Origin: Escherichia coli
Lineage (GTDB): Bacteria; Pseudomonadota; Gammaproteobacteria; Enterobacterales; Enterobacteriaceae
Strand: one strand, 5' to 3'
Assembly: GCF_003334385.1 (NCBI RefSeq)
Contig: NZ_QOWN01000062.1
Length of the DNA stretch: 17,976 nt
Position numbers and translations under genes: made by a program. Every line of letters starts with the position of its first letter. The stretch's first letter is position 1. The notes under the pieces were generated by a model that did no database searches, was not told the DNA's origin, and worked only from the letters and a program-made list of their open reading frames with translations. Shown one piece after another: positions 1 through 15,314 of this stretch.

Positions 1-775
1 AGAGAGCGTAGGCCAGTTCGTCATCCAGTGTTTTCCATGTCTGCTTGTATTCGCGATGAATGGCAGCAATGACCGGGCTGATTTTTCCTGTTGAATTTTC
101 AGTGTACTGTTGATTGGCTCTGGCGCGGGCGAGATCAACAACAGATGTGTATTTTCCGGTTTCCTTGCGTTCACCTTCGCGACGTTTTTTCCAGATGCGC
201 ATCTCTGCCTGAATTTCGGGCCATTTGGCACCAGGCGTACATTTATGCTTAACCCACCCGATGGCATGCAGCTTAAGCTCCGGATACATGGCGTTAACTT
301 CTGGCATTTTCATCAACGCTTCAACGATATGTCCGTCGAATGTTGCCATGTCTTCCTGCAACAATTCCTGCGCGCTAATAACCATATCAACGGTGATGTT
401 TTCACATGTGTCGAACTTAACCATGACAGCGTTCTGTACTTCAGGGGCCAGCTTGTCAAAAGTGACGTTCATCGGATCGGATTCAGTCTCAACCGGGACA
501 AAAGAAGCAGACTCCTCATCCCAGCGGTTTTCCTGCATATATTCAGCATCCCATGAATCGAGGGCAGGGCGGGGTATGCCAGGTTTATCCTCGCAGACAA
601 TAAATTTATAAGCGCAGTCCTGAGCAGCCGGATAATGTTCCAGGAACTGCCAGTGAAATTTTGCTCGAGCACGGCGTTCGTCGCCAGCTTCAATGGCTGT
701 GGCTACAGCCACAGCGCCTTCTTCCCTTGTTGCCAGTTCGTCAGGAATAGCGGCGCAAATAAAGACTTTACTCAT
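1..775 (-). CDS. ydfE: Qin-type prophage protein YdfE-like, N-terminal ~258 codons; ORF continues past the window start
   Basis: Minus-strand ATG at 775-773 with GAGG about 10 nt upstream. My manual translation is stop-free to the window edge (absent from the ORF track because no stop lies inside the window). N-terminus MSKVFICAAIPDELATREEGAVAVATAIEAG. Sits directly downstream of ydfD as in Qin. Name from memory. Confidence 0.55.
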   Translation of the reverse strand, partial: MSKVFICAAIPDELATREEGAVAVATAIEAGDERRARAKFHWQFLEHYPAAQDCAYKFIVCEDKPGIPRPALDSWDAEYMQENRWDEESASFVPVETESDPMNVTFDKLAPEVQNAVMVKFDTCENITVDMVISAQELLQEDMATFDGHIVEALMKMPEVNAMYPELKLHAIGWVKHKCTPGAKWPEIQAEMRIWKKRREGERKETGKYTSVVDLARARANQQYTENSTGKISPVIAAIHREYKQTWKTLDDELAYAL

Positions 776-868
776 TTTGTTTTAACCTCATGACAGATTT
801 AAGGATGAACAAATCCCTGCCATTGCTGGCATATAAGAATGAAACCGGATATTTATTACGGAACTGTT

Positions 869-1060
869 TTAAAGACCTGCCGGGATTTCGTTATTATCCT
901 GGTGAATAACTTTATCGACCGGGTAACAGTTACCGGGAATTTTCTGTTCGGTTGCTGCAGTCATACACTCCTGCATTGTCCTGTGAACACTGACTGCAAT
1001 ATCAACTGGCACTCCGGAAACAAGAAAAACTGTCAGAACAAGCGCAAATGCTGAATTCAT
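869..1060 (-). CDS. ydfD: YdfD-like small protein (63 aa) with hydrophobic N-terminus
   Basis: Internal Met of track ORF 869..1114 gives MNSAFALVLTVFLVSG...NNEIPAGL. Start ATG (1060-1058) overlaps the dicB stop in an ATGA arrangement. Confidence 0.75.
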   Translation of the reverse strand: MNSAFALVLTVFLVSGVPVDIAVSVHRTMQECMTAATEQKIPGNCYPVDKVIHQDNNEIPAGL

Positions 1061-1245
1061 TGTGCACATCCTTTTGGCATCAGACGTAAACGAGCCAGCA
1101 TTGAAACAATGCATATTTTATTTAATAGCTCCCGTTCTTGTTTTCTCTTGTTAATGGCATCTTCAGTAAATACAGGGTTACTGATAGTGACACCAATTTC
1201 AAAACAACCTTCAGACGTATTAACGTTTGGTAATAACGTTTTCAT
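1057..1245 (-). CDS. dicB: DicB cell-division inhibitor (62 aa)
   Basis: Internal Met of track ORF 1057..1350 gives MKTLLPNVNTSEGCFEIGVTISNPVFTEDAINKRKQERELLNKICIVSMLARLRLMPKGCAQ, which I recognise as DicB. GAGGA Shine-Dalgarno upstream of the ATG at 1245-1243. Confidence 0.9.
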   Translation of the reverse strand: MKTLLPNVNTSEGCFEIGVTISNPVFTEDAINKRKQERELLNKICIVSMLARLRLMPKGCAQ

Positions 1246-1414
1246 TATCGCGTCCTCAACAATGAATTTTGTGATGCAGTGCCTGGTGCCTCCAGGTGAC
1301 GTTAACCAGTTAACAATTAACGTCGGATACAGAGAATCCACCCATAACACTGTTTTTGGTTTTAACTGTTCCGCGTGCGCTTAGCCGTATTCACCGCATC
1401 ACAAAATTCACTTT

Positions 1415-1472
1415 AAAAAGGGCGGCAGAGCAGTCACGGAGTAAAACTGATACCGCCAAACGTCACCAGAAA
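1415..1472 (-). ncRNA. dicF: DicF small RNA (ftsZ-targeting antisense sRNA) with its 3' hairpin and U-run
   Basis: Reverse complement of 1415-1472 reads TTTCTGGTGACGTTTGGCGGTATCAGTTTTACTCCGTGACTGCTCTGCCGCCCTTTTT, matching DicF as I recall it, ending in a GC-rich hairpin (GGCGG...CCGCC) plus T-run. Lies between the ydfC position and dicB as in the dicB operon. Confidence 0.9.
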
Positions 1473-1503
1473 ATTGATAACAGAGGGCGTTGCAGCGGGG
1501 TTG

Positions 1504-1695
1504 TCACTTAAGCGTATGGTCAACCTGACAACCCGGTGTCCTCAACGGGGAAGGAATAACCCCGCCATACTTACCGCCGCGCCATTTTGCGGGTTGCCAC
1601 AACCGGAAGCGCACGGTCGAATTAAATTTAACGACACCGTACAGTGAGACGAACTTCGCCGTGCGCTTTCGTGTTGTGTGCCTGCTTTTAACCAC
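1504..1695 (-). CDS. Small ORF at the ydfC position (63 codons, GTG start); coding status doubtful
   Basis: Track ORF MVKSRHTTRKRTAKF... between the ydfB stop and the DicF 5' end. GC-rich and Arg/Lys-rich; could instead be structured precursor RNA for DicF. Confidence 0.2.
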   Translation of the reverse strand: MVKSRHTTRKRTAKFVSLYGVVKFNSTVRFRLWQPAKWRGGKYGGVIPSPLRTPGCQVDHTLK

Positions 1696-1731
1696 GTCAG
1701 GCGAGGTGGTATCCTTAAAATCACCACAGTT

Positions 1732-2307
1732 TTAAGGATTCATTAAGCAATGTCGCAACCACCAATAAATCCGCTTAAGAACATGAAAATTGATTACTGG
1801 TATAAAGCGCTTACAGTTGTTGGCGCTGCGTTGTTTGTCTTTAATGGAACGTCTTTTTTTGACAGATATCCCGTTGTTCCATTGGGTTTTTTGTCCTCCG
1901 GCATCTTTTTTATTGGTTTGGGGGAGTGGATTAATCACCCTCTCATAGTGAGATTTATTGGTCCTGGAGTTTGGACTCGTGGATATAATCGTTCTTCGTG
2001 CGCACTCGGTATCATCTTCGACATACTTGGTTGTTTCCTGATTGTTACAGGAGTCGTCAAGTTCTTCTGATGTAAAACCGCAAATGGGGCACGTAACGGG
2101 AATTTTGAAAAGCGTTTCTCCGGGTTCCAGAACAAAATTTTCTGCGGTCTGATTTTGCTTCTCATATTTGTGCTCCGCGTCATTGTGAGAGCACATTCTT
2201 ATTCTGAGTGCCTGTTTAAACTCACTGAAGCTGAGAGCTTCTTCGCCTTCGGCAAGGCCTTCGAAGTATTCTTCGTAAGCCTTTTCCATGATTGTGTCGA
2301 AATCCAT
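1732..2307 (-). CDS. ydfB: YdfB-like ORF; the first 42 codons match the short YdfB I remember, but here the frame stays open for 191 codons
   Basis: ATG at 2307-2305 with AGGTGAG Shine-Dalgarno, 1 nt after the ydfA stop. Begins MDFDTIMEKAYEEYFEGLAEGEEALSFSEFKQALRIRMCSHN, then continues DAEHKYEKQ...CPICGF. The C-terminal part is low-complexity and may be a shadow of the antisense ORF at 1750..2070. Confidence 0.4.
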   Translation of the reverse strand: MDFDTIMEKAYEEYFEGLAEGEEALSFSEFKQALRIRMCSHNDAEHKYEKQNQTAENFVLEPGETLFKIPVTCPICGFTSEELDDSCNNQETTKYVEDDTECARRTIISTSPNSRTNKSHYERVINPLPQTNKKDAGGQKTQWNNGISVKKRRSIKDKQRSANNCKRFIPVINFHVLKRIYWWLRHCLMNP

Positions 2308-2308
2308 A

Positions 2309-2464
2309 TCACTCACCTGAGTTTCTTTCCAGCCAGCGACGGGCACCATTTTCGGTTTTAAACGTTTTGCTTTTGGTATACGTCATCGCGGTGAACGTAC
2401 CGTCCTGGTTGGGGAACACGCCACATACCAGAGATTCGCTGTTGCCAAGATCGATAGTATCCAT
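2309..2464 (-). CDS. ydfA: YdfA (51 aa)
   Basis: Internal Met of track ORF 2309..2518 gives MDTIDLGNSESLVCGVFPNQDGTFTAMTYTKSKTFKTENGARRWLERNSGE. GAGGT Shine-Dalgarno upstream of the ATG at 2464-2462. Confidence 0.85.
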   Translation of the reverse strand: MDTIDLGNSESLVCGVFPNQDGTFTAMTYTKSKTFKTENGARRWLERNSGE

Positions 2465-2534
2465 GCTGACCTCATTTCCCCTTAACGCCGGGGTAGCGGA
2501 ACTGTTTGCTGAGAACACCGTGCGGTGTCTTGAT

Positions 2535-2570
2535 GGAGGTAATTTAGTTTTCTCATTATTTTCGTCAAGG
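2535..2570 (-). promoter_or_regulatory. Candidate sigma-70 promoter for the ydfA-dicB operon
   Basis: On the minus strand: TTGACG (rc of 2563-2568), 16-nt spacer, TAAATT (rc of 2541-2546), lying between the dicA-like stop and the ydfA start. Judged by eye only. Confidence 0.35.
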
Positions 2571-2655
2571 TTTTTTGATGAGAAAGCTCAAGTATTGGCG
2601 CAAGATAAAGCCAATACATTGAAATGTAAGGCTTTAAAATTTTGTGAAGGGATGA

Positions 2656-3063
2656 TTATTGATGCTTGTTGCGTTTGCGAGCCTCTAATAGCTCGGTGAA
2701 CAGGCGATTAAAATTCTCAACGCGGGCGCGGAGTTCGCTGAGTTGTGCTTGTTGCTCTGATTTAGGAAGTGCGCGATACAAACGCAGCATCTCTAACTCA
2801 TCTTCCGATAAGTCTAAGGCACTATCGAGTGAAACAGGGGGAGCTGGTGTTTTGTCCTCGTCGCCAAACAGTATCCAAGTTGGTGAACATTGCAATACCT
2901 CGGCGAGGCGATGCAAATTTTGCCCGCGCGGGGCTGTATGGTCACTTTCCCATAATGAAATTGATGAGCCAGATACGCCAGCAGCTTTGCTTAAACCGTT
3001 TTGACTTAAGCCTACCTGCTTACGTCTTTCTCTAATGCGTTGACCTAAAGTTTTCTCGTTCAT
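2656..3063 (-). CDS. dicA: DicA-like HTH (XRE-family) repressor, 135 aa
   Basis: Internal Met of track ORF 2656..3114 gives MNEKTLGQRIRERRKQVGLSQNGLSKAAGVSGSSISLWE...VLQCSPTWILFGDEDK...; the VLQCSPTWILFGDEDK block and C-terminus match DicA as I recall it. Divergent from the Cro-like gene. Confidence 0.85.
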   Translation of the reverse strand: MNEKTLGQRIRERRKQVGLSQNGLSKAAGVSGSSISLWESDHTAPRGQNLHRLAEVLQCSPTWILFGDEDKTPAPPVSLDSALDLSEDELEMLRLYRALPKSEQQAQLSELRARVENFNRLFTELLEARKRNKHQ

Positions 3064-3140
3064 ATTTAGATATCTTAATAACCCTTGACTTGAGATTCCT
3101 TGAGTGATTAGCATTGAGAAAACTCAATATTGGAGGTGCG
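3064..3140. promoter_or_regulatory. Divergent promoter/operator region between the dicA-like and dicC-like genes
   Basis: 77-bp intergenic region with three TTGAG motifs and a perfect palindrome ATTGAGAAAACTCAAT at 3113-3128 overlapping the dicC-like ribosome-binding region. Typical repressor/Cro switch geometry. Confidence 0.45.
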
Positions 3141-3368
3141 ATGTTTAAATCAGACGTAATTAATTTTTACGGTACGAAAGCCAAAGTAGCGAAAGCTGCT
3201 GGCGTTGACCCATCTGCTGTTTCTCAATGGCAAGAGCTGGTTCCTGAAGGTCGCGCGATGCGTCTACAGGAGGCATCTGGCGGCGAGCTTCTGTATGATC
3301 CCAAGGTTTATGACGAATATCGTAAGACGAAGCGGGCGGGGCGGTTGAACAATGAAAATCACTCCTGA
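3141..3368 (+). CDS. dicC: DicC-like (Cro-type) regulator, 75 aa
   Basis: ATG at 3141 with GGAGGTG Shine-Dalgarno. MFKSDVINFYGTKAKVAKAAGVDPSAVSQWQ...EGRAMRLQEASGGELLYDPKVYDEYRKTKRAGRLNNENHS resembles DicC. Divergent from the repressor. Confidence 0.8.
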   Translation: MFKSDVINFYGTKAKVAKAAGVDPSAVSQWQELVPEGRAMRLQEASGGELLYDPKVYDEYRKTKRAGRLNNENHS

Positions 3369-3873
3369 ACAGGCTCGTGAGGCTCTGGATGCCTGGATAT
3401 GTCGACCAGGAATGACACAGGAGCAGGCGACGATATTAATCACTGAAGCATTCTGGGCTTTGAAAGAGCGCCCGAACATCGATGTTCAGCGTGTCACATA
3501 TGAAGGTGGCGCGATTGATCAGCGAGCGCTTGGCGTTAATCGAGTGAAGATATTTGAACGCTGGAAGGCTATCGACACCAGGGATAAGCGTGAAAAGTTC
3601 ACGGCGCTAGTGCCTGCAATTATGGAGGCTATCCGGATTAATGATTTCAGGTTGTATCGTGAAATTACTGACGGAAAAAGCATCACGTGCATGATCGCCG
3701 GGTTAAACAAAGAATATGGCGATGTGGTGGAGTCCGGACTGCTTTTTGCTGATCCTGCCGTAGTGGATCGTGAAACTGACGAACTTATAGAAAAAGCAAT
3801 TGCTTTCAAACTTGCGTATCGACAGCAATACCAACAAAAAGCTGGATGGAATTATGAGCCTTCTTTTTGCTGA
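3352..3873 (+). CDS. Hypothetical 173-aa protein at the CII position (possibly YdaT-like); function not recognised
   Basis: Track ORF; ATG overlaps the dicC-like 3' end by 17 nt, suggesting translational coupling. Family assignment is a guess from gene position. Confidence 0.55.
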   Translation: MKITPEQAREALDAWICRPGMTQEQATILITEAFWALKERPNIDVQRVTYEGGAIDQRALGVNRVKIFERWKAIDTRDKREKFTALVPAIMEAIRINDFRLYREITDGKSITCMIAGLNKEYGDVVESGLLFADPAVVDRETDELIEKAIAFKLAYRQQYQQKAGWNYEPSFC

Positions 3874-4819
3874 ACGCCCACTGGTTATAAACACGCAGCT
3901 GGCAATGAAAATTGGCTTAAACGAAGCCATTGTTTTGCAACAACTGCACTACTGGTTGAGAGATACCAACTCCGGCATGGAATGTGATGGTGTTCGCTGG
4001 ATTTATAACACAACGGAACAATGGCTGGAACAGTTCCCATTCTGGTCAGAGTCAACGTTAAAGCGCGCGTTTGCAAGTCTGAAAACGCTGGGGCTTTTGC
4101 GTTGTGAAAAGCTCAATAAATCAAAGCGCGATATGACCAATTTCTACACGATCAACTATGGGTGCGAGCTTTTAGATGGTGGCAAATTGAGCGAATCCAT
4201 CGGTTCAAAATGCGCCGCTCCATCAGGTCAAAATGACACGATGGAAGAGGTCAAAATGAAACGCTCCATTGGTTCAAAACGACCCAATGTCATCGGGTCA
4301 AAATGGCCTGATGATCTTACAGAGAATACAACAGAGATTACTACAGAGAATAAAAACACTTTTCGTCCGGAAGCTTCGCAACCGGACCCGCAGACGACTG
4401 AACAGGATTTTTTAACCCGGAACTCCGACGCGGTTGTGTTTAGTGCGAAAAAACGCCAGTGGGGTAGCAGGGAGGATTTGGCGTGTGCGCAGTGGATCTG
4501 GGGGCGGATCGTGGGTCTCTACGAACAGGCAGCCAGTGATGATGGCGAGATCATGCGACCAAAAGAGCCTAACTGGACTGCCTGGGCCAATGACGTGCGC
4601 ACAATGCGGATGCTGGATGGCAGAAGCCACAGACAAATTTGCGAAATGTTTGGTCGGGTTCAGCGAGATCCATTCTGGGTAAAAAACATCATGAGCCCGT
4701 CAAAGCTCCGCGAAAAATGGGACGAACTGGTCATCCGCCTGGGACGTTCACCTGTACAGCGTTGTGTTAATCATATTTCTGAACCGGATACAGAAATTCC
4801 GCCTGGTTTCAGAGGATAA
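3854..4819 (+). CDS. Phage replication initiator / replisome-organizer protein (lambda O-like role), 321 aa from the ATG at 3854
   Basis: Track ORF 3800..4819; preferred start at 3854 (MSLLFAERPLVINTQLAMKIGLNEAIVLQQLHYWL, an HTH-like N-terminus). The gene contains five iteron repeats at 4196-4305, as ori-lambda lies inside O. Confidence 0.7.
   Translation: MSLLFAERPLVINTQLAMKIGLNEAIVLQQLHYWLRDTNSGMECDGVRWIYNTTEQWLEQFPFWSESTLKRAFASLKTLGLLRCEKLNKSKRDMTNFYTINYGCELLDGGKLSESIGSKCAAPSGQNDTMEEVKMKRSIGSKRPNVIGSKWPDDLTENTTEITTENKNTFRPEASQPDPQTTEQDFLTRNSDAVVFSAKKRQWGSREDLACAQWIWGRIVGLYEQAASDDGEIMRPKEPNWTAWANDVRTMRMLDGRSHRQICEMFGRVQRDPFWVKNIMSPSKLREKWDELVIRLGRSPVQRCVNHISEPDTEIPPGFRG
4196..4305 (+). repeat. 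Five direct iterons (core GGT(T)CAAAA(T/C)G) at 22-25 bp spacing inside the replication gene; candidate replication origin
   Basis: Core starts at 4202, 4226, 4249, 4271 and 4296, with flanks TCCATCGGTTCAAAATG, TCCATCAGGTCAAAATG, GAGGTCAAAATG, TCCATTGGTTCAAAACG and GTCATCGGGTCAAAATG. Followed at 4320-4356 by three ACAGAGA(A/T)TA repeats in an A-rich stretch. Confidence 0.6.
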
Positions 4820-4859
4820 GTGTTGATTTCAGGTCATGAGGTAATTTTAAGGGGGACTT

Positions 4860-5282
4860 GTGGCAAAAGTTTTTACACAAGAAGAGCGGGAAAAAATTAA
4901 ATGGCAGGTGGTGGAACTCGTGCGCCAGAGCGGCCGTGAGACGTTACGGCAACTGGAAGCTAAAACAGGTGCGACTAGATATCTGATGAGCGTTCTTGCC
5001 AGAGAGCTGGTAGCCAGTGGCGATGTATACAACTCCGGCTACGGGTTATTCCCCTCTGAACAGGCGCGTAAGGACTGGCAAAACGCCCGCAAAAAACTCT
5101 CGAGGGCAAAGGTGAAGAAACCTGCTTTGGTTGATCCGGACCTTATCTGGTCATCACCTGACGGAGAAATACGTCGCTACGACAGTCGCCTAAACATAAT
5201 CTGTCGCGAGTGCCGGAAGAGCGAAGTTATGCAGCGCATACTGGCTTTCTATCAGGGTAATTTTCAGGACGTGGCGCAGTGA
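4860..5282 (+). CDS. Hypothetical 140-aa protein (GTG start), downstream of the replication initiator
   Basis: Track ORF preceded by AAGGGGGA Shine-Dalgarno. Its stop overlaps the GTG start of the following methyltransferase ORF (GTGA). No recognisable motif. Confidence 0.5.
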   Translation: MAKVFTQEEREKIKWQVVELVRQSGRETLRQLEAKTGATRYLMSVLARELVASGDVYNSGYGLFPSEQARKDWQNARKKLSRAKVKKPALVDPDLIWSSPDGEIRRYDSRLNIICRECRKSEVMQRILAFYQGNFQDVAQ

Positions 5283-5725
5283 GTGCACCGGCAACCATTC
5301 TTGATATGTGCTGTGGCAGCCGCATGTTCTGGTTCGATAAGTCTGACGAACGGGCGATATTCAGCGATATCAGAAAAGAAGGATACACATTACGCAATGG
5401 GAGACGCTTGATTATCAGCCCTGACATTATCGCAGATTTTCGTGCATTATCATTTGCAGACGCATCTTTTTCGATGGTTGTATTAGACCCTCCGCATCTT
5501 GAGAGTGTTGGTGATAACGCCTGGATGGGAAAGAAATATGGACGGCTGAATAAAGATGCCTGGCGTGATGATTCGCGACAGAGATTTAAAGAAGCCTTTC
5601 GGGTGTTGAGGCCGCACGGCGTTCTGATTTTTTAATGGAATGAAACGCAAATACCGGTAAGCCAGATTCTGGCACTGACAGACAGAAAACCTGTTATCTG
5701 TCAACGAACAGGGAAAAAACGATAA
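5279..5725 (+). pseudogene. DNA amino-methyltransferase (motif I DMCCGS, motif IV DPPH) interrupted by an in-frame TAA at 5633-5635
   Basis: Track ORF 5279..5635 carries VVLDPPHLE, the D-P-P-[YFWH] catalytic motif of N6A/N4C methyltransferases, and a SAM-binding-like ILDMCCGS. The same frame continues after the TAA for 29 codons (WNETQIPVSQILALTDRKPVICQRTGKKR) to a TAA at 5723-5725. Confidence 0.5.
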
Positions 5726-5897
5726 AACCCACTGGATTATTTTTATGAAAGAGGCATCCAGTGAGTAGATTCGTAAGGCTACAGATACGTATATCTGAAT
5801 AATTAAATTCAGTTCTGTAAATAAAATTTAATCCTTAACCGGATGGATTTCTGCACCCTCAGAACATCAGGAGGCAGCCCGAAAGGGCGGTAGTGAA

Positions 5898-6080
5898 ATG
5901 CGAAAGTTCAAAATTATTATTGAAACGGGAATAGCTGGTGGAGATTTTGAGGATGTATTCGAAGTGGACGATGACGCAACACCTGAGGAAATTCATGACG
6001 GAGCATAAGAAATTTTCTTTAACTACTGCAATTACTCATACCACGAAATAAAAGACGATGAGGAAGAACAAAGTGGCTGA
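5898..6080 (+). pseudogene. Small acidic ORF (36 codons) with an in-frame TAA at 6006-6008 and a 23-codon in-frame continuation
   Basis: MRKFKIIIETGIAGGDFEDVFEVDDDATPEEIHDGA, stop, then EIFFNYCNYSYHEIKDDEEEQSG in the same frame. Manual translation. Confidence 0.3.
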
Positions 6081-6249
6081 TTTTTGTTCAGCTAAATATA
6101 ACATCAGTTTTGAAGAGCGGGATGAACTATTAATGGACTATGGTGAGTTACGCGGTGGAAGTGCTGCTGATGTCGAATCCTAGCGTGATGACTATGAAGC
6201 GGGAAAAACTCCGGTCGAAGCATATTGTGATGAGTGGGGCGATGAATGA
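6058..6249 (+). pseudogene. Small ORF (41 codons) with an in-frame TAG at 6181-6183 and a 21-codon acidic in-frame continuation
   Basis: MRKNKVADFCSAKYNISFEERDELLMDYGELRGGSAADVES, stop, then RDDYEAGKTPVEAYCDEWGDE. The terminal TGA overlaps the ATG of the next ORF (ATGA). Confidence 0.35.
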
Positions 6250-6533
6250 GCGAGATTAATTATCAGGAAGGGCATGAAACGGCGGGGCAAGCAAAACCAG
6301 TGGCATGGCGATATCGCTACGTGAAAAAAGGCGTTACGGACTTTCAGGGGAAGTAGTGGTCTGGTGACTGGAAATATGTACCGAAAAAAGAGGATTGTAA
6401 CGACAGGCCGAACTATCAAATTCAGGCCTTATTCACTGCCTCACCAGTCCCAGTTACATCAGAAGAACTGGTTAAAGCTGTGCACTTTTATGAACAACTA
6501 AAACGCGAAAATCCACCAACATCCGGCAACTAG
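6246..6533 (+). pseudogene. Small ORF (36 codons) with an in-frame TAG at 6354-6356 and a 58-codon in-frame continuation
   Basis: MSEINYQEGHETAGQAKPVAWRYRYVKKGVTDFQGK, stop, then WSGDWKYVPKKEDCNDRPNYQIQALFTASPVPVTSEELVKAVHFYEQLKRENPPTSGN in the same frame. Confidence 0.4.
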
Positions 6534-6787
6534 ATTAATGGATTAACTATGTCGGTTAAACGACCAGCCAACTGAAAAAGCGGAAACCTGATTACAGGTT
6601 GCCAGATAAGGCAATGAGCTACCTGGCGCGGAACGGACTGATAAGTATGGGGAATGTTTTACGATGAACCTTTAGACTAAAGAGTTTGTAACGCTATGTA
6701 AGTGATTTTTTCTGGTTTAGATATTTATATGTCCGGCCAAATTGAGGTGTGTTTAAATGTAATTGCACATTGATTGTAGGAGGAATA

Positions 6788-6967
6788 ATGAAAAACGCAT
6801 TGCAGTTTTTGTTTGTTGCGTTCTGGTTGTTCGCATCATGTATGCCCATCATCTTCACAGCAAGGTATATGGAAAAAGTTGATGTTTTGATATTAATATT
6901 TGGATATATAAATGCCCTTTTTTTAGGGGTGTTCATGGCGGTCATGTGCATTGAATACTGGCGGTAA
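6788..6967 (+). CDS. Small hydrophobic protein, 59 aa, two predicted transmembrane segments
   Basis: ATG at 6788 with AGGAGG at 6778-6783. MKNALQFLFVAFWLFASCMPIIFTARYMEKVDVLILIFGYINALFLGVFMAVMCIEYWR. No antisense gene explains it. Confidence 0.45.
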   Translation: MKNALQFLFVAFWLFASCMPIIFTARYMEKVDVLILIFGYINALFLGVFMAVMCIEYWR

Positions 6968-7301
6968 ATACAGCGAACTCCATTGGTTTAGTTGGATATT
7001 TACTGTGCTGGACAAAAACGGTTTGCGGGGAAATCTTAGTTAAGTAGAATGACTGCGGGTGCTTGAGGCTATCTGCCTCGGGCATGGACACCAACGGCAG
7101 ATAGAGAAAAGCCCCAGTTAACATTACGCGTCCTGCAAGACGCTTAACATTAATCTGAGGCCAATTTCATGCTAGACACATGTAGGTTAGCCTCTTACGT
7201 GCCGAAAGGCACGGAGAAGCAGGCTATTGTTAACACCAAGCTGTAATGTCCCCTTTGAACCATTCTAAAATGTCCCCAGACAATTCTCTGGGGGATTTTT
7301 C

Positions 7302-8615
7302 ATGATCAAAGAGACTGTTACGATGAGTCATAAGGAACTCCACCGACTTCAGATTATTCAGGAACAAGCTGCGGCACGCATTGGCATTTCTATTCGGCAG
7401 GTTAAACGTCTGGTGCAACGGTATAGAAATGAAGGGCCTTCTGGTCTGGTTTCCCACCGACGTGGAAAGCGTCCTAATAATTCCTTTTCTACTGAATTCA
7501 GAGCAACAGTAATTTCACTCCTCAAAGGCCGTTACGCTGATTTTGGACCTACGTTTGCGTGCGAAAAATTGCGCGAGATACACGGTTTATCTTTATCCGT
7601 TGAAACTCTCAGAAAGTGGATGATAGAAGAGGGGTTATGGCGTGAACGCCGTCGTAAAATTGCCCGTATATATCAACGCCGCATGCGACGACCATCTTAC
7701 GGTGAACTGATCCAGATTGATGGCTCACCTCATGACTGGTTTGAAAATCGAGGCCCCAGATGTACACTGATCGTTTTCATTGATGATGCCACCAGTGCGT
7801 TGATGGCGTTGCGTTTTGTGCCTGCTGAAACAACCCGGGCTTACATGGAAACCCTCCGGGGTTACCTTAATGATCATGGCGTACCGCTCGCTCTCTACTC
7901 TGATAGACACAGTATATTCAGGGTAAATAACCCAGAGCGGGAAGGTGAGCTGACCCAGTTCACTCGTGCGATAAAGACACTGGGCATCGAGCCAATCCAT
8001 GCCAACAGCCCGCAGGCAAAAGGGCGGGTAGAGCGCGCCAATCAGACACTACAGGACAGGCTGGTCAAAGAAATGCGGCTTCAGAATATCAGTGATATTG
8101 AAACAGCAAATGCATGGTTGCCGACCTTTATTGAAGCCTATAACAACCGGTTCGCTACGTCGCCTCGTACTACTGATAATGCTCATCTTGATGTGCACCA
8201 TTCTGAAGAGGAACTGGGTTATATCTTCAGCCTACAGGCGAAGCGCGTTCTGTCTAAAAATCTCACTTTCCAGTACAAAAGCAGTGCGTTTCAGGTACGC
8301 AGTGAGGGCCGGGGATATCGACTTAGGCATTCGGTTGTTACTGTATGCGAGAACTTTGACGGTGAAATTAACGTTCTGTATGACGGGAAAGCGCTGGGCT
8401 GGGAAAAGTATGTTGATGGCCCGGAGCCTATACCACTGGATGATGAAAAGAGTGTCCATGAACGAGTGGATAATGCCCGTATTGATTTACGCTCAAAATA
8501 CTATGTTAAACCTAAAGCTGACCATCCCTGGCTTACGCGCCGAACGCAAAGTCATCAGCAAGTTAAGCCCCCGAAGTTACCTAAAAAGAAGCCTGATCCC
8601 GATAAAAAAGATTGA
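7302..8615 (+). CDS. IS-element DDE transposase (integrase-core/rve type with N-terminal HTH), 437 aa; family uncertain (IS481-like or ISNCY-like)
   Basis: Track ORF with HTH-like N-terminus (IGISIRQVKRLVQRY) and candidate DDE residues in IQIDGSPHDW, IVFIDDATSA and GRVERANQTLQD. Ends of the element could not be defined. Confidence 0.8.
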   Translation: MIKETVTMSHKELHRLQIIQEQAAARIGISIRQVKRLVQRYRNEGPSGLVSHRRGKRPNNSFSTEFRATVISLLKGRYADFGPTFACEKLREIHGLSLSVETLRKWMIEEGLWRERRRKIARIYQRRMRRPSYGELIQIDGSPHDWFENRGPRCTLIVFIDDATSALMALRFVPAETTRAYMETLRGYLNDHGVPLALYSDRHSIFRVNNPEREGELTQFTRAIKTLGIEPIHANSPQAKGRVERANQTLQDRLVKEMRLQNISDIETANAWLPTFIEAYNNRFATSPRTTDNAHLDVHHSEEELGYIFSLQAKRVLSKNLTFQYKSSAFQVRSEGRGYRLRHSVVTVCENFDGEINVLYDGKALGWEKYVDGPEPIPLDDEKSVHERVDNARIDLRSKYYVKPKADHPWLTRRTQSHQQVKPPKLPKKKPDPDKKD

Positions 8616-9018
8616 AACCAAGATCGATTCGGTTGAGTGCATATCCATTCATAGGGTAGATTCTTAAGTCGCGTTTCTGGTGTTCATTTTCGGGTGGTTT
8701 GTTACTTGTTTTACCGGGGATATGCCAGAAACGCGCTGAGTCAGTCTGGGCGGTGCGCGTAATGAGGCGTTATGGTAAATAGCCTATGCTAATGTCCGCT
8801 AAGAGCAAGAAGCGGAAGTTGGCAGTTTTGTGGACTGTCCCCACAAAAGTGACTACAGAAATAGTTGCAATTCATAATTGATCATGGGTTGTCAGTTAAA
8901 CTCGTGGCGATTTAAATAGACTAATTGGGAGTGCGTCCATTACTTATATCTTGTAATGTTAACTATCAGAAATGATACAAAGATAATATGTCTTTAAAGA
9001 AAAGGCTGATGGCGAAAA

Positions 9019-9037
9019 GTGGCCCGATGAGGGCCAC
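9019..9037 (-). terminator. Candidate intrinsic terminator downstream of flxA
   Basis: Hairpin GTGGCCC-GATGA-GGGCCAC just 3' of the flxA stop; on the minus strand it is followed by a short T-rich tract (TTTTCGCC). Confidence 0.35.
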
Positions 9038-9051
9038 AATACGGCTGTCAC

Positions 9052-9384
9052 TTAGACGTAAATATCAATGGTGCCAGCGGTATTTGTATCGTCTTTTTTC
9101 TCTTCTTTTTTATCAGGCTGAACTGTCGCGTCTTCATTCTTTTTCTCTGCCTGCTGCCTTAACAACTGCTCCAGTTGAGCCCAGAGGCTTTCAATTTGCT
9201 TCTGTACCAATGCAGCCATTTCTTTTTTCTGCTGTGTCGTCATCCCCTCTTCCGATGAGATTTTCCCAAGCTTTTCAGTCAGCACCTGAATTTGTCTTGT
9301 GATTTTGGCTATTTCTGATGTTCCTTCCGGGGCGGAGTTGTTTGAAATAACGGTTGAGGTATTTCCCTGAATTGTGACAGACAT
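9052..9384 (-). CDS. flxA: FlxA (110 aa)
   Basis: Track ORF MSVTIQGNTSTVISNNSAPEGTSEIAKITRQIQVLTEKLG... matches FlxA as I recall it. AAGGAG Shine-Dalgarno and a sigma-28 promoter lie upstream. Confidence 0.85.
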   Translation of the reverse strand: MSVTIQGNTSTVISNNSAPEGTSEIAKITRQIQVLTEKLGKISSEEGMTTQQKKEMAALVQKQIESLWAQLEQLLRQQAEKKNEDATVQPDKKEEKKDDTNTAGTIDIYV

Positions 9385-9407
9385 AGATTTCTCCTTTTAA
9401 AAAAGCA

Positions 9408-9434
9408 CTATCGGCATGCACAAAAAAATCTTTA
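9408..9434 (-). promoter_or_regulatory. Sigma-28 (FliA) class promoter for flxA
   Basis: Minus strand reads TAAAGATT - 11 nt - GCCGATAG, against the consensus TAAAGTTT-N11-GCCGATAA, about 25 nt upstream of the flxA start. Confidence 0.6.
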
Positions 9435-9586
9435 ATCGTATTTCTTGTGTCATTAATTGTTTGATGTTCAGATTGTTTTCCTCGCGGGCTGGCGCGCCTC
9501 AGAAAGTAAAGCTTGTTGACAGGGGTAAACGTTCGGCAATAATTTTCTGCCGCATGCGGGTGTTGCATAAAACGTGTTACGTTCCT

Positions 9587-9892
9587 TTATCGACAGGTCA
9601 GGTCACCGCTCACCCGCCGACGAGAAAGCAACACTGACATGCTAAAGCAAAAAATAGATGAATAAGTTGAGTTGTGCATATGTAGCCTGACCGTCACAAA
9701 GTATATGGTGTCTGTACCAGTAAGATGATGGCCGGACTCTTTAAAAACGAGCTGACCTGCACAATACAGGATGGACTTAGCAATGGCTGCTCCTGGCACA
9801 AAGCGGACAGTGATCACCGTTCTTACGACTACTTTCTGACTTCCTTCGTGACTTGCCCTAAGCATGTTGTAGTGCGATACTTGTAATGACAT
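9587..9892 (-). CDS. ORF at the ydfV position (101 codons); coding status uncertain
   Basis: Track ORF MSLQVSHYNMLRASHEG... between flxA and relB; same length as ydfV in K-12 as I recall. No motif support. Confidence 0.2.
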   Translation of the reverse strand: MSLQVSHYNMLRASHEGSQKVVVRTVITVRFVPGAAIAKSILYCAGQLVFKESGHHLTGTDTIYFVTVRLHMHNSTYSSIFCFSMSVLLSRRRVSGDLTCR

Positions 9893-9905
9893 TTGTAATT
9901 ACAAG
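9881..9905 (+). promoter_or_regulatory. relO operator of the relBE promoter
   Basis: TTGTAATGACATTTGTAATTACAAG, with inverted TTGTAAT/ATTACAA repeats, directly upstream of the relB Shine-Dalgarno (GAGGTG) and ATG at 9917. Confidence 0.7.
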
Positions 9906-9916
9906 AGGTGTAAGAC

Positions 9917-10156
9917 ATGGGTAGCATTAACCTGCGTATTGACGATGAACTTAAAGCGCGTTCTTACGCCGCGCTTGAAAAAATGGGTGTAACTCCTTCT
10001 GAAGCGCTTCGTCTCATGCTCGAGTATATCGCTGACAATGAACGCTTGCCGTTCAAACAGACACTCCTGAGTGATGAAGATGCTGAACTTGTGGAGATAG
10101 TGAAAGAACGGCTTCGTAATCCTAAGCCAGTACGTGTGACGCTGGATGAACTCTGA
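9917..10156 (+). CDS. relB: RelB antitoxin (79 aa)
   Basis: MGSINLRIDDELKARSYAALEKMGVTPSEALRLMLEYIADNERLPFKQTLLSDEDAELVEIVKERLRNPKPVRVTLDEL; near-identical to RelB as I recall it. Confidence 0.92.
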   Translation: MGSINLRIDDELKARSYAALEKMGVTPSEALRLMLEYIADNERLPFKQTLLSDEDAELVEIVKERLRNPKPVRVTLDEL

Positions 10157-10443
10157 TGGCGTATTTTCTGGATTTTGACGAGCGGGCACTAAAGGAATGG
10201 CGAAAGCTGGGCTCGACGGTACGTGAACAGTTGAAAAAGAAGCTGGTTGAAGTACTTGAGTCACCCCGGATTGAAGCAAACAAGCTCCGTGGTATGCCTG
10301 ATTGTTACAAGATTAAGCTCCGGTCTTCAGGCTATCGCCTTGTATACCAGGTTATAGACGAGAAAGTTGTCGTTTTCGTGATTTCTGTTGGGAAAAGAGA
10401 ACGCTCGGAAGTATATAGCGAGGCGGTCAAACGCATTCTCTGA
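10156..10443 (+). CDS. relE: RelE mRNA-interferase toxin (95 aa)
   Basis: MAYFLDFDERALKEWRKLGSTVREQLKKKLVEVLESPRIEANKLRGMPDCYKIKLRSSGYRLVYQVIDEKVVVFVISVGKRERSEVYSEAVKRIL. ATG overlaps the relB stop (ATGA). Confidence 0.92.
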   Translation: MAYFLDFDERALKEWRKLGSTVREQLKKKLVEVLESPRIEANKLRGMPDCYKIKLRSSGYRLVYQVIDEKVVVFVISVGKRERSEVYSEAVKRIL

Positions 10444-10514
10444 ACCAAAGCATGACATCTCTGTTTCGCACCGAAGGTGACACTTCTGCTTTGCGTTGAC
10501 AGGAGAAGCAGGCT

Positions 10515-10670
10515 ATGAAGCAGCAAAAGGCGATGTTAATCGCCCTGATCGTCATCTGTTTAACCGTCATAGTGACGGCACTGGTAACGAGGAAAGACCT
10601 CTGCGAGGTACGAATCCGAACCGGCCAGACGGAGGTCGCTGTCTTCACAGCTTACGAACCTGAGGAGTAA
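10515..10670 (+). CDS. hokD: HokD (RelF) Hok-family membrane toxin, 51 aa
   Basis: Manual translation MKQQKAMLIALIVICLTVIVTALVTRKDLCEVRIRTGQTEVAVFTAYEPEE; GGAGAAG Shine-Dalgarno. Under 60 aa, so absent from the ORF track. Confidence 0.9.
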   Translation: MKQQKAMLIALIVICLTVIVTALVTRKDLCEVRIRTGQTEVAVFTAYEPEE

Positions 10671-10735
10671 GAGACCCGGCGGGGGAGAAATCCCTCGCCA
10701 CCTCTGATGTGGCAGGCATCCTCAACGCACCCGCA

Positions 10736-10768
10736 CTTAACCCGCTTCGGCGGGTTTTTGTTTTTATT
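10736..10768 (+). terminator. Intrinsic terminator after relBE-hokD
   Basis: CCCGC-TTCG-GCGGG hairpin followed by TTTTTGTTTTTATTTT. Confidence 0.6.
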
Positions 10769-10886
10769 TTCAACGCGTTTGAAGTTCTGGACGGTGCCGG
10801 AATAGAATCAAAAATACTTAAGTAGCGCGCAGGGATAAGAGGGATGGTCCCTTAAAGGGGAGAGCTAATTATCCGGAAGGATTCTG

Positions 10887-11192
10887 ATGATGAACATCGA
10901 AGAACTGCGTAAAATTTTTTGTGAAGATGGCCTCTATGCTGTGTGCGTTGAAAATGGAAATCTTGTTAGTCATTACCGCATTATGTGTTTGCGAAAGAAT
11001 GGGGCTGCGTTAATTAATTTTGTGGATGCTCGGGTCACGGACGGATTTATCTTGCGCGAAGGTGAGTTTGTCACTTCATTACAGGCATTGAAAGAGATCG
11101 GAATAAAAGCTGGCTTTTCTGCTTTTCTGGTAACAAAGTGCTGGCAGGAAGAAGCATACGCGGAAGCGCAATTGAGGAAGGTGACGAGATAA
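10887..11192 (+). CDS. rem: Rem-like small protein
   Basis: Track ORF MMNIEELRKIFCEDGLYAVCVENGNLVSHYRIMCLRKNGAALINFVDARVTDGFILREGEF... resembles Rem of Qin. The C-terminus may differ in length from K-12. Confidence 0.65.
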   Translation: MMNIEELRKIFCEDGLYAVCVENGNLVSHYRIMCLRKNGAALINFVDARVTDGFILREGEFVTSLQALKEIGIKAGFSAFLVTKCWQEEAYAEAQLRKVTR

Positions 11193-11613: not shown

Positions 11614-11826
11614 TCATGAAAGGTAAACATTGGCAGCTGAAGGGCCACGCAGACCATTTATCCGGCAAAATTCCACGCGTAATCCGGTGGTAATTTCTTC
11701 TGCATCGCGGAGATTGAGCGCTGAAACATGAAGCTGGACATCGATACGACCATCGGATGGGGTGATAAGACCCTTGCCGCTTTTGCCGTCAAAGGTTTTG
11801 ACAATTCCTGTCATTTTACGGGACAA
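11614..11826 (-). CDS. cspF: CspF/CspH-like cold-shock-domain protein (70 aa, apparent TTG start)
   Basis: Track [73 protein letters not shown]. Divergent from cspB as in Qin. Confidence 0.75.
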
Positions 11827-12126
11827 AAAAATTCCTTAATACTGATAACTTGGCGCACTATACACACGTTCCTGAAGAAAGCTATAGTTTTTTGATGGGG
11901 TTGAAGATGGCTGGATGTCTAAAATAAACATTGCTTCATATGTTCAACTATGCGTTAATGATTGCGTCGGTTTGAAGAACAGACGATATACGAAGTAGTT
12001 TACTAAAGCAGTTCTCATTTCAGGTGTTATTCACTTATTCCTTCTTTGAGTCTCTCCAATTAAGTACGAAGTCGTTTCTGTTATGCAAACCATTTATGCC
12101 GAAAGGCTCAAGTTAAGGAATGTAGA

Positions 12127-12342
12127 ATGTCAAATAAAATGACTGGTTTAGTAAAATGGTTTAACGCTGATAAAGGTTTCGGCTTTATTTCTCCTGTTGA
12201 TGGTAGTAAAGATGTGTTTGTGCATTTTTCTGCGATTCAGAATGATAATTATCGAACCTTATTTGAAGGTCAAAAGGTTACCTTCTCTATAGAGAGTGGT
12301 GCTAAAGGTCCTGCAGCAGCAAATGTCATCATTACTGATTAA
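12127..12342 (+). CDS. cspB: Cold-shock protein CspB (71 aa)
   Basis: [71 protein letters not shown]. Long 5' UTR containing a TGCCGAAAGGC box, as in the csp family. Confidence 0.9.
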
Positions 12343-12624
12343 AATTCATCGCTCGTCTGTATACGATAACGAAGAAGGCTGATGCCTGAGTAGAGATACG
12401 GACAGAGTAGTGAATATTGGATCTCTTTAATAAAAAGTAAGGAGGTCCAATACATGAAACAATGGCCAGCATATTTGGCAAAATCTTAATCAGGAAAAGT
12501 ATGCTAACCATTGTGGTGAAGTGCAGGTTTGCTGCATGAATAGTTTTACAGCAGAAGCTAACTGCTGGCATGGCAAAACAAAGTGCGTAAGTGGATGACT
12601 CCCACAAAAAGCACCACAATCTCA

Positions 12625-13627: not shown

Positions 13628-14651
<1,024 letters not shown>

Positions 14652-15013
14652 GGTAATATTAAATCGGAACATTTACATCGCGGAATGTAAAATTTAAATA
14701 AAAAGGACTCTTCCATGAGCCAAAATTCCTGAAATCTTAAGGGTAAGATAAAAGGTCTTAATCAGAATGACACGTTTTATTAATAAATAAAGCTATTCTT
14801 TCATTGCTGTGTTTTTCTTTACAAAAGTAATCCTTGCTATGGGTGGTTAATCATGCGTTAATGGTGTTCTGGTTTGTTACAAATTTATCTGAAGCAGTCA
14901 TTGTTATAATTTTATTATTTGTACCTCTTGAGATTTCCTTGTTGGTTTTTCTCTCTGATATTTTTTTTCGGACCATTCTGCCCAAGGGCTAATTTCTTCA
15001 AAAGGTAATAATT

Positions 15014-15226
15014 ATGTCTAACAAAATGACTGGTTTAGTGAAATGGTTTAACCCTGAAAAAGGTTTTGGTTTCATCACGCCGAAAGATGGCAGCAAAGAT
15101 GTGTTTGTCCATTTCTCAGCAATTCAGAGCAACGATTTCAAAACATTAACTGAGAATCAGGAAGTTGAATTTGGTATTGAGAACGGACCTAAAGGTCCTG
15201 CCGCTGTTCATGTAGTGGCGCTTTGA
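15014..15226 (+). CDS. cspI: Cold-shock protein CspI (70 aa)
   Basis: [70 protein letters not shown]. Confidence 0.88.
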
Positions 15227-15314
15227 GGTAGACAATATTACAAACCATATTCACTTTAGATGCCCGTGTTGTCATGGTTCCCAGTATAGAACATCATCTT
15301 TTGATGTTTCTGAC

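Follow-up and report, generated by a model that had tools for sequence, protein, structure and literature searches.

The subject of this report is a 17,976-nucleotide (nt) stretch of Escherichia coli DNA, referred to throughout as the window, and within it the operon that encodes the division inhibitors DicF, a small RNA (sRNA), and DicB, a protein. We consider it very probable that the window holds the early-left region of a lambdoid prophage of the Qin/HannyBb type, in which a variant immunity switch with predicted operators stands over dicBF. The operon, its regulators, the immunity allele and their adjacency to replication genes are already known from public genomes, a sequenced phage and the literature. 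The only new lead is a pair of genes nested on opposite strands in a cassette that the operon carries in the place of ydfC.

The dicBF operon and its immunity switch

All parts of the leftward operon lie on the minus strand in sequence coordinates (Table 1), in keeping with an earlier note on this DNA which had described ydfA, DicF, dicB and ydfD as co-oriented within 1057-3368, an interval that ydfD overruns. That note had placed DicF at 1415-1472, and there we found an sRNA that agrees with K-12 dicF at every base, the ~220 nt of precursor upstream of it being identical too; likewise, the 62-amino acid (aa) product that it had named DicB matches K-12 DicB at every residue. DicF lies between the stop of an open reading frame (ORF) at 1732 and the dicB start at 1245, all on one strand, and the ydfD start overlaps the dicB stop by 4 nt (ATGA, 1057-1060). 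The operon had also been called complete, which holds for DicF, dicB, ydfA and ydfD but not for the K-12 six-gene set ydfA-ydfB-ydfC-dicF-dicB-ydfD: ydfC is absent, K-12 YdfC having no similarity to either ORF at the ydfC position, and of ydfB, which starts at 2307, only the first 34 codons are present, their product being identical to that of K-12 and diverging thereafter. Apart from ydfC and the C-terminus of Rem, every element that K-12 needs to produce DicF and DicB is intact. In K-12, DicF pairs with ftsZ mRNA and blocks its translation, and dicBF loci have been described earlier in varied prophage contexts (PMC5069750); from the identity of the two sRNAs we infer that DicF here is an ftsZ-pairing division inhibitor as well.

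Table 1. Features of the window, with positions in nt, strand and supporting detail.
Feature	Position	Strand	Detail
ydfD	869-1060	-	63 aa, lysis protein; 60/63 aa identical to K-12 YdfD
dicB	1057-1245	-	62 aa, division inhibitor acting through MinC; 62/62 aa identical to K-12 DicB, E 2e-46
DicF sRNA	1420-1471	-	Rfam RF00039, 76.7 bits vs gathering score 48, E 1e-15, model 1-52 of 52
Untranslated DicF precursor region	1472-1689	-	common to K-12
517-bp cassette	1690-2206		absent from K-12; replaces ydfB 3' end and ydfC
Candidate promoter of 106-aa gene	1688-1715	+	-35 TTAACC, 16 nt, extended -10 TGgTATCCT
106-aa three-helix membrane-protein gene	1750-2070	+	opposite to operon; unannotated in RefSeq
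191-codon ORF	1732-2307	-	YdfB N-terminus (34 aa), CP(I/V)CGF motif, tail antisense to 106-aa gene
ydfA	2309-2464	-	51 aa, DUF1391; 49/51 aa identical to K-12 YdfA; phrog_751
Putative operon promoter, dicBp-type	2541-2568	-	-35 TTGACG 2568-2563, 16 nt, -10 TAAATT 2546-2541; consensus scan
Operator-like site OL1	2542-2557		ATTTAGTTTTCTCATT; 2 mismatches to the palindrome; in spacer and -10 of operon promoter
Operator-like site OL2	2577-2592		GATGAGAAAGCTCAAG; 4 mismatches; directly upstream of operon -35
DicA-family repressor	2656-3063	-	135 aa; NCBIfam NF007257, 237 bits vs cut-off 101, profile positions 2-135 of 135
Weaker operator-like site	3045-3060		near repressor start
Operator-like palindrome	3064-3079		ATTTAGATATCTTAAT; 4 mismatches on both strands; inverted repeat; abuts repressor start codon
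Candidate Cro-like gene promoter	3085-3114	+	-35 TTGACT, 18 nt, -10 TAGCAT; consensus scan
Predicted operator palindrome	3113-3128		ATTGAGAAAACTCAAT; perfect 6-4-6; position of K-12 Oc; overlaps last two bases of Cro-gene promoter
DicC-family Cro-like regulator	3141-3368	+	75 aa; NCBIfam NF007282, 165.3 bits vs cut-off 130
CII-like/YdaT-family gene	3352-3873	+	173 aa; phrog_163
O-like replication initiator	3854-4819	+	321 aa; phrog_391, E 4.5e-91
Ren-like/DUF977 protein	4860-5282	+	140 aa; phrog_142, E 1.6e-47; DUF977 in O26 annotation
Methyltransferase fragment	5279-5635		in 5220-7198 segment
Small hydrophobic ORF	6749-6967		in 5220-7198 segment
hok/sok-type element	7057-7228		Rfam sok, 104 bits
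relB/relE toxin-antitoxin pair, then hokD	9917-10443		100% identical to K-12
cspF-like cold-shock gene (third csp gene)	11614-11826	-
cspA-type thermoregulator leader	11966-12358		Rfam RF01766, 158.8 bits; before cspB-like gene
Rz-like gene	14154-14651		rzpQ in K-12
Rz1-like lipoprotein ORF	14329-14601		embedded in Rz-like gene, other frame, same strand; rzoQ in K-12
cspA-type thermoregulator leader	14868-15253		Rfam RF01766, 112.8 bits; before cspI-like gene
K-12 match (blastn)	9-1689		97.6%
K-12 match (blastn)	1690-2206		none
K-12 match (blastn)	2207-2535		96.7%
K-12 match (blastn)	2536-3239		essentially none
K-12 match (blastn)	3240-3631		98.7%
K-12 match (blastn)	8431-11126		100%; ydfW, flxA, ydfV, relBE, hokD, rem

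The two regulatory genes are divergent, and their products fall within the DicA and DicC subfamilies, as had been proposed; that they form the K-12 switch, however, did not hold. The repressor is 57% identical to K-12 DicA, with the differences concentrated in the helix-turn-helix (HTH) part, and the Cro-like protein is 70% identical to K-12 DicC, with a different N-terminal HTH and an identical C-terminus. Family searches with the 135-aa repressor gave HTH-type and DicA matches only, and no S24 peptidase domain. The operator region contains a palindrome, as the earlier note had said, and related sites lie at both early promoters, which is the arrangement of a lambdoid immunity region: there are four sites with up to four mismatches in a 680-bp stretch (2542-3128) versus one in the other 17.3 kb, and shuffles of the whole window gave 2.5.

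A promoter for the operon had been predicted at 2535-2570, and candidate -35 and -10 hexamers do lie inside that range, although the promoter scan of the window as a whole was no richer than shuffled sequence (five sites versus 4.1 expected). For this reason our call of the operon promoter relies on its positional match to the K-12 layout, TTGACC-17-TAATCT, within which an Oc-like site sits at the same place as OL1 does here. The K-12 counterpart of the Cro-gene promoter is TTGACT-17-TATCTT, with Oc overlapping its -10; the K-12 positions of both promoters are our own reading of that sequence and do not come from a published map.

How might such a switch work? If binding, repression, RNA processing and the activities of DicF and DicB are carried over from K-12, the repressor would bind 16-bp sites of the consensus ATTGAGTTTTCTCAAT, two of which cover the operon promoter (OL1 and OL2), while two or three others, the weak one near the repressor start included, lie in the divergent region, with the perfect palindrome over the -10/+1 of the Cro-like gene. 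Bound repressor would silence ydfA, the ydfB-derived ORF, DicF, dicB and ydfD leftward and also the Cro-like/CII-like/replication operon rightward. Upon derepression a polycistronic RNA would be made, from which RNase E, RNase III and the DicF terminator would generate a 53-nt DicF, as in K-12; DicF would then pair with ftsZ mRNA, and DicB, translated from the operon RNA together with YdfD, would redirect MinC to the septum. For K-12, repression by DicA, the action of Rem and processing by RNases III and E have been reported, and the routes to derepression are the Rem antirepressor, spontaneous switching, and heat or urea (PMC10448788, PMC5069750).

Are these regulators homoimmune with K-12 DicA/DicC, their sequence differences being neutral drift? 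Both proteins score above the DicA/DicC subfamily cut-offs and their C-terminal halves are similar or identical to those of K-12, yet we regard this as highly improbable. K-12 Oc (TTGTTAGTCATAACTAACAA) has no match in the window even at up to three mismatches, and a different palindrome occupies the same positions in both promoters. Oc binds K-12 DicA and a single base change in it abolishes binding (PMC3441716). In addition, identity to K-12 at the DNA level falls from 97-99% to below detection over precisely the stretch of repressor, operators and Cro N-terminus, which is the pattern of an exchanged module: within the unmatched segment at 2536-3239 lie the promoter/operator of the operon, the gene for the repressor, the intergenic region between the divergent genes and the part of the Cro-like gene for its N-terminus. 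Because the recognition-helix regions and all of the operators differ but the promoter geometry is kept, we conclude that, as judged from its sequence, the switch is a heteroimmune allele and not K-12 DicA/DicC, that is, the same switch in another immunity type, with the pattern of an exchanged immunity module.

Several observations do weigh against a switch that governs dicBF here as it does in K-12. The promoter hexamers match at only 9/12 and come from a scan no richer than chance; Rem may not act on a repressor that shares only 57% of its residues with K-12 DicA; Rem itself has lost its last three residues in a deletion fusion; and a convergent plus-strand gene with a conserved promoter-like block, located between the operon promoter and DicF, could cut read-through to dicF and dicB. 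On the strength of the last point the operon might be considered a dead remnant, in which the convergent gene of the cassette uncouples dicF/dicB from the DicA-controlled promoter and so takes division inhibition out of the switch's control, and the prophage is indeed defective elsewhere, with an insertion sequence (IS) at 7302-8615 and a deletion at 11126/11127 that removed ydfU and most of the Q gene. We nevertheless find this improbable: the minus-strand frame is open through the whole cassette, conservation is perfect in DicF, DicB and 220 nt of precursor, and the identical early-left region is present in the complete phage HannyBb. The terminator scan also found no terminator-like site on the minus strand between 2307 and 1471, although the promoter and terminator scans, neither of them richer than shuffled sequence, were not used as independent evidence.

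Relation to the K-12 layout and occurrence in other genomes

As the earlier note had pointed out, the switch lies next to a replication module, unlike in K-12: the Cro-like gene is followed by CII/YdaT-like, O-like initiator and Ren-like genes. The integrase remnants that it had supposed to stand beside dicC in K-12 turned out to be something else. K-12 YdfX consists of residues 1-93 of the CII/YdaT-like protein (93/93 identical), and K-12 YdfW, once named intK, of the final 49 residues of the IS1202-family transposase encoded at 7302-8615 of the window. Because these two are exact stumps at one junction, we conclude that K-12 is a derivative of the present layout by a deletion of 4.8 kb, whose end points correspond to window positions 3631/3632 and 8430/8431.

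The window has suffered a loss of its own at 11126/11127, a junction relative to both K-12 and O26, where a deletion has taken ydfU along with most of the Q antiterminator gene (ydfT/quuQ). The predicted Rem is a fusion across this junction that keeps 80/83 residues and gains a foreign tail of 21 residues (101-aa ORF, 10887-11192). This fusion may matter for antirepression of a DicA-type repressor.

Comparison with other genomes showed this arrangement to be nothing unusual. Positions 800-3400 are 99.8% identical to many complete genomes, such as that of O26:H11 11368; at least 80% of this stretch is present in 415 of 5,426 complete E. coli genomes, and the arrangement as such in about 8-15%. 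The heteroimmune allele is as common as the K-12 type (797 versus 851 of the 5,426), and the cassette is present in 806. At least two immunity types of equal frequency thus accompany the dicBF module; the layout of the K-12 reference is a deletion derivative. The same 4.5 kb of early region (800-5300) is 98.6% identical over its full length in the complete 45-kb phage HannyBb (PP925841).

These comparisons are also of use for annotation. ydfX and ydfW are gene stumps, and the repressor, DicF and the 106-aa gene are under-labelled in RefSeq, in which the repressor is only a "helix-turn-helix domain-containing protein" and the other two are unannotated. In O26:H11 11368 the annotated features are ydfD, dicB, ydfB (as a pseudogene), ydfA, the "helix-turn-helix domain-containing protein" and a "Cro/CI family transcriptional regulator".

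The cassette in the ydfC position and its putative nested genes

Does the cassette contain a gene on the plus strand, on the minus strand, or on both? Substitutions in the plus-strand 106-aa gene are distributed over the three codon positions as 11/7/35 in comparison with lineage L003 and as 38/23/55 in comparison with L004, third positions being near saturation in the latter (55/106). Its homologs, at 34-58% identity, occur in Yersinia, Herminiimonas, Reinekea and many metagenomes, the motifs DYWYKA and GEW.NHP being invariant among them and persisting in homologs that have no antisense ORF. These are the marks of purifying selection, and by them we conclude that the plus-strand gene is real; that the ORF is spurious can be rejected on account of the third-position bias and of conservation in homologs with many stops in the antisense frame. 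The AF2 (AlphaFold 2) model of the protein is confident (pLDDT 84.7), with three helices and a beta hairpin. The protein matched no family in PHROGs, NCBIfam or PADLOC, Foldseek against viral structures returned nothing below E 0.01, and its structural neighbours in AFDB50 are only uncharacterised membrane proteins of ~100 aa.

Upstream of this gene, at 1681-1720, is a non-coding block, TGCCTG-CTTTTAACCAC-CAGGC-GAGGTGGTATCCT, in which an inverted repeat GCCTG/CAGGC brackets the -35 of the candidate promoter. The block is kept across lineages whose proteins have only ~50% identity, with a two-sided change in the GCCTG/CAGGC repeat in L065; it may represent either a promoter together with an operator or a hairpin in the RNA of the early-left transcript. 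It is restricted to lineages that have the nested pair in the PL (early-left) operon beside the repressor, namely the window, L003, L004, L007 and L065, and is not universal to the module, being absent from those that have the pair in the PR (early-right) operon directly after cro (L067, L069, L070, L085, L087 and L089). In these PR-type lineages (about 2950-3460 in each) the membrane-protein gene faces cI, which is the geometry of a lambda PRE-type transcript.

The minus-strand ORF arises by fusion of ydfB, after codon 34, to a different tail of 157 codons. It matches phrog_35040 (function unassigned) over its full length, other lineages match this family through the antisense tail only, and its database homologs are all from the same type of locus; the HannyBb annotation lists it as a hypothetical protein of 205 aa. 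Across lineages the antisense ORF begins with one of at least three or four unrelated N-terminal parts, and in every case it stops 5-12 codons past the start of the embedded gene. Just outside the overlap, the motif IPxxCP(I/V)CGF is kept from E. coli to Yersinia with changes that are synonymous in the minus frame, and inside it the sign of selection in this frame is the avoidance of stops alone.

What is the evidence for such avoidance? The 106-aa gene is fully embedded in the ORF and the two frames are codon-aligned, with the consequence that only TTA, CTA and TCA give antisense stops. Across 12 prophage lineages, many of them only 40-60% identical, none of these three codons occurs (0 TTA, 0 CTA and 0 TCA) in 1,286 codons of the embedded gene, which does use their sister codons (15 ATA, 7 GTA, 14 CCA, 14 ACA and 23 GCA). 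TTA and CTA make up 5-58% of the leucine codons in neighbouring genes, and the probability of a lineage having no antisense stop is 0.001-0.18. The distribution is also discontinuous: six other lineages, two AT-rich phage copies and four non-phage homologs, have 5-14 stop-generating codons, no diverged lineage has 1-4, and only four near-identical E. coli copies carry one. From the synonymous changes and the missing stops it appears that the minus-strand ORF is real too. As the only gene of the cassette it can be rejected, on the ground that the plus-strand protein remains conserved where the antisense frame of a homolog is riddled with stops.

We hold, with about even confidence, that the cassette is a nested antisense pair that recurs in lambdoid prophages, in which an early lytic operon contains, in reverse orientation, a small membrane-protein gene with probable expression in the lysogen, and the operon ORF is kept free of stops across the insert. 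The contrary reading, that the antisense frame is open as a side effect of codon usage or common descent and that just one ORF of the overlapping two is a real gene, seems to us somewhat unlikely, for all that it has in its favor. With aligned frames just three sense codons can make an antisense stop, a few E. coli copies do carry one, and no constraint at the amino-acid level was seen in the minus-strand tail inside the overlap, since the third positions of the plus strand are nearly saturated; in L064, moreover, the minus-strand protein ends two codons after the motif CPICGFT. What this reading has difficulty in accommodating is the complete lack of the three codons where their sisters are in use, the share of TTA and CTA in neighbouring genes, and the gap between lineages with no stops and lineages with many. 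Codon bias for high expression can be dismissed as the cause of the open frame: leucine is written as CTT, TTG, CTC and CTG with no preference for the last, and the sister NTA and NCA codons are used.

If the nested pair is accepted, why would an operon keep a frame open through a moron that is inserted backwards? We favor anti-polarity, according to which the open tail would keep ribosomes on the early transcript and so prevent Rho-dependent polarity on the genes downstream, these being dicF and dicB here and cII and O in other lineages. The alternative is a true bifunctional overlap with a functional tail; anti-polarity is favored because the tail is without amino-acid constraint and the L064 protein stops right after its motif. 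We also propose that the convergent genes of the pair may exclude each other's expression. If the pair is real, bacteria would have in it a long antisense overlap with phylogenetic support, an example of a class whose existence is disputed.

Other features of the window and comparison with known systems

Positions 5220-7198 are absent from O26:H11 11368; phage HannyBb also has 5220-5445 and 7037-7227. The remaining features, listed in Table 1, include two thermoregulator leaders and three csp genes. The Rz/Rz1-like pair forms a second nested gene pair in the window, of the classical kind.

The closest known system is the Qin prophage of K-12 (b1569-b1576). The two share their gene order as well as identical DicF and DicB, and there is full or near identity in YdfA, YdfD and the initial 34 aa of YdfB. 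Both have the same promoter/operator geometry at both promoters and a short DicA-type repressor without an S24 domain, and their flanks agree, with the exonuclease/ydfE side in one direction and relBE, hokD, flxA and rem in the other. They differ in the repressor, the Cro-like protein and the operator sequence, which are heteroimmune, and in the cassette, which stands here in place of ydfC and the 3' end of ydfB. The window retains the 4.8 kb lost in K-12, with the remainder of the CII-like gene, the genes of the O-like and Ren-like proteins, the methyltransferase fragment, hok/sok and most of the insertion sequence, but it is without ydfU and most of quuQ.

Phage HannyBb has the same repressor allele, cassette and replication genes, and in relation to it the window copy is a decayed prophage with an insertion sequence and deletions. 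Phage mEp460_ev081 (LR597641), cited as a functional phage with dicB, dicF, dicAC and rem (PMC10448788), covers 86% of the 800-5300 query at 97.5% identity and lacks the cassette. For the nested pair, the nearest parallel is olg1/olg2 versus gene 10 in Pseudomonas phage Fc02 (PMC9936078), where a gene in the lysogenic direction beside the repressor is likewise fully overlapped by an early lytic ORF; the proteins and the type of phage are unrelated, and Fc02 has expression and exclusion data, the pair in the window comparative sequence evidence.

In a wider sense the switch resembles the immunity regions of lambdoid phages, such as lambda cI/cro with OR and OL and P22 immC, in having a divergent repressor/Cro pair and repeated palindromic operators over both early promoters, and lambdoid phages likewise exchange their immunity modules as a block between otherwise near-identical phages. 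Unlike in lambda and P22, the repressor here is without the RecA-cleavable S24 domain and the leftward operon carries division inhibitors directed at the host, and, unlike either phage, K-12 Qin is induced via the antirepressor Rem or by spontaneous switching.

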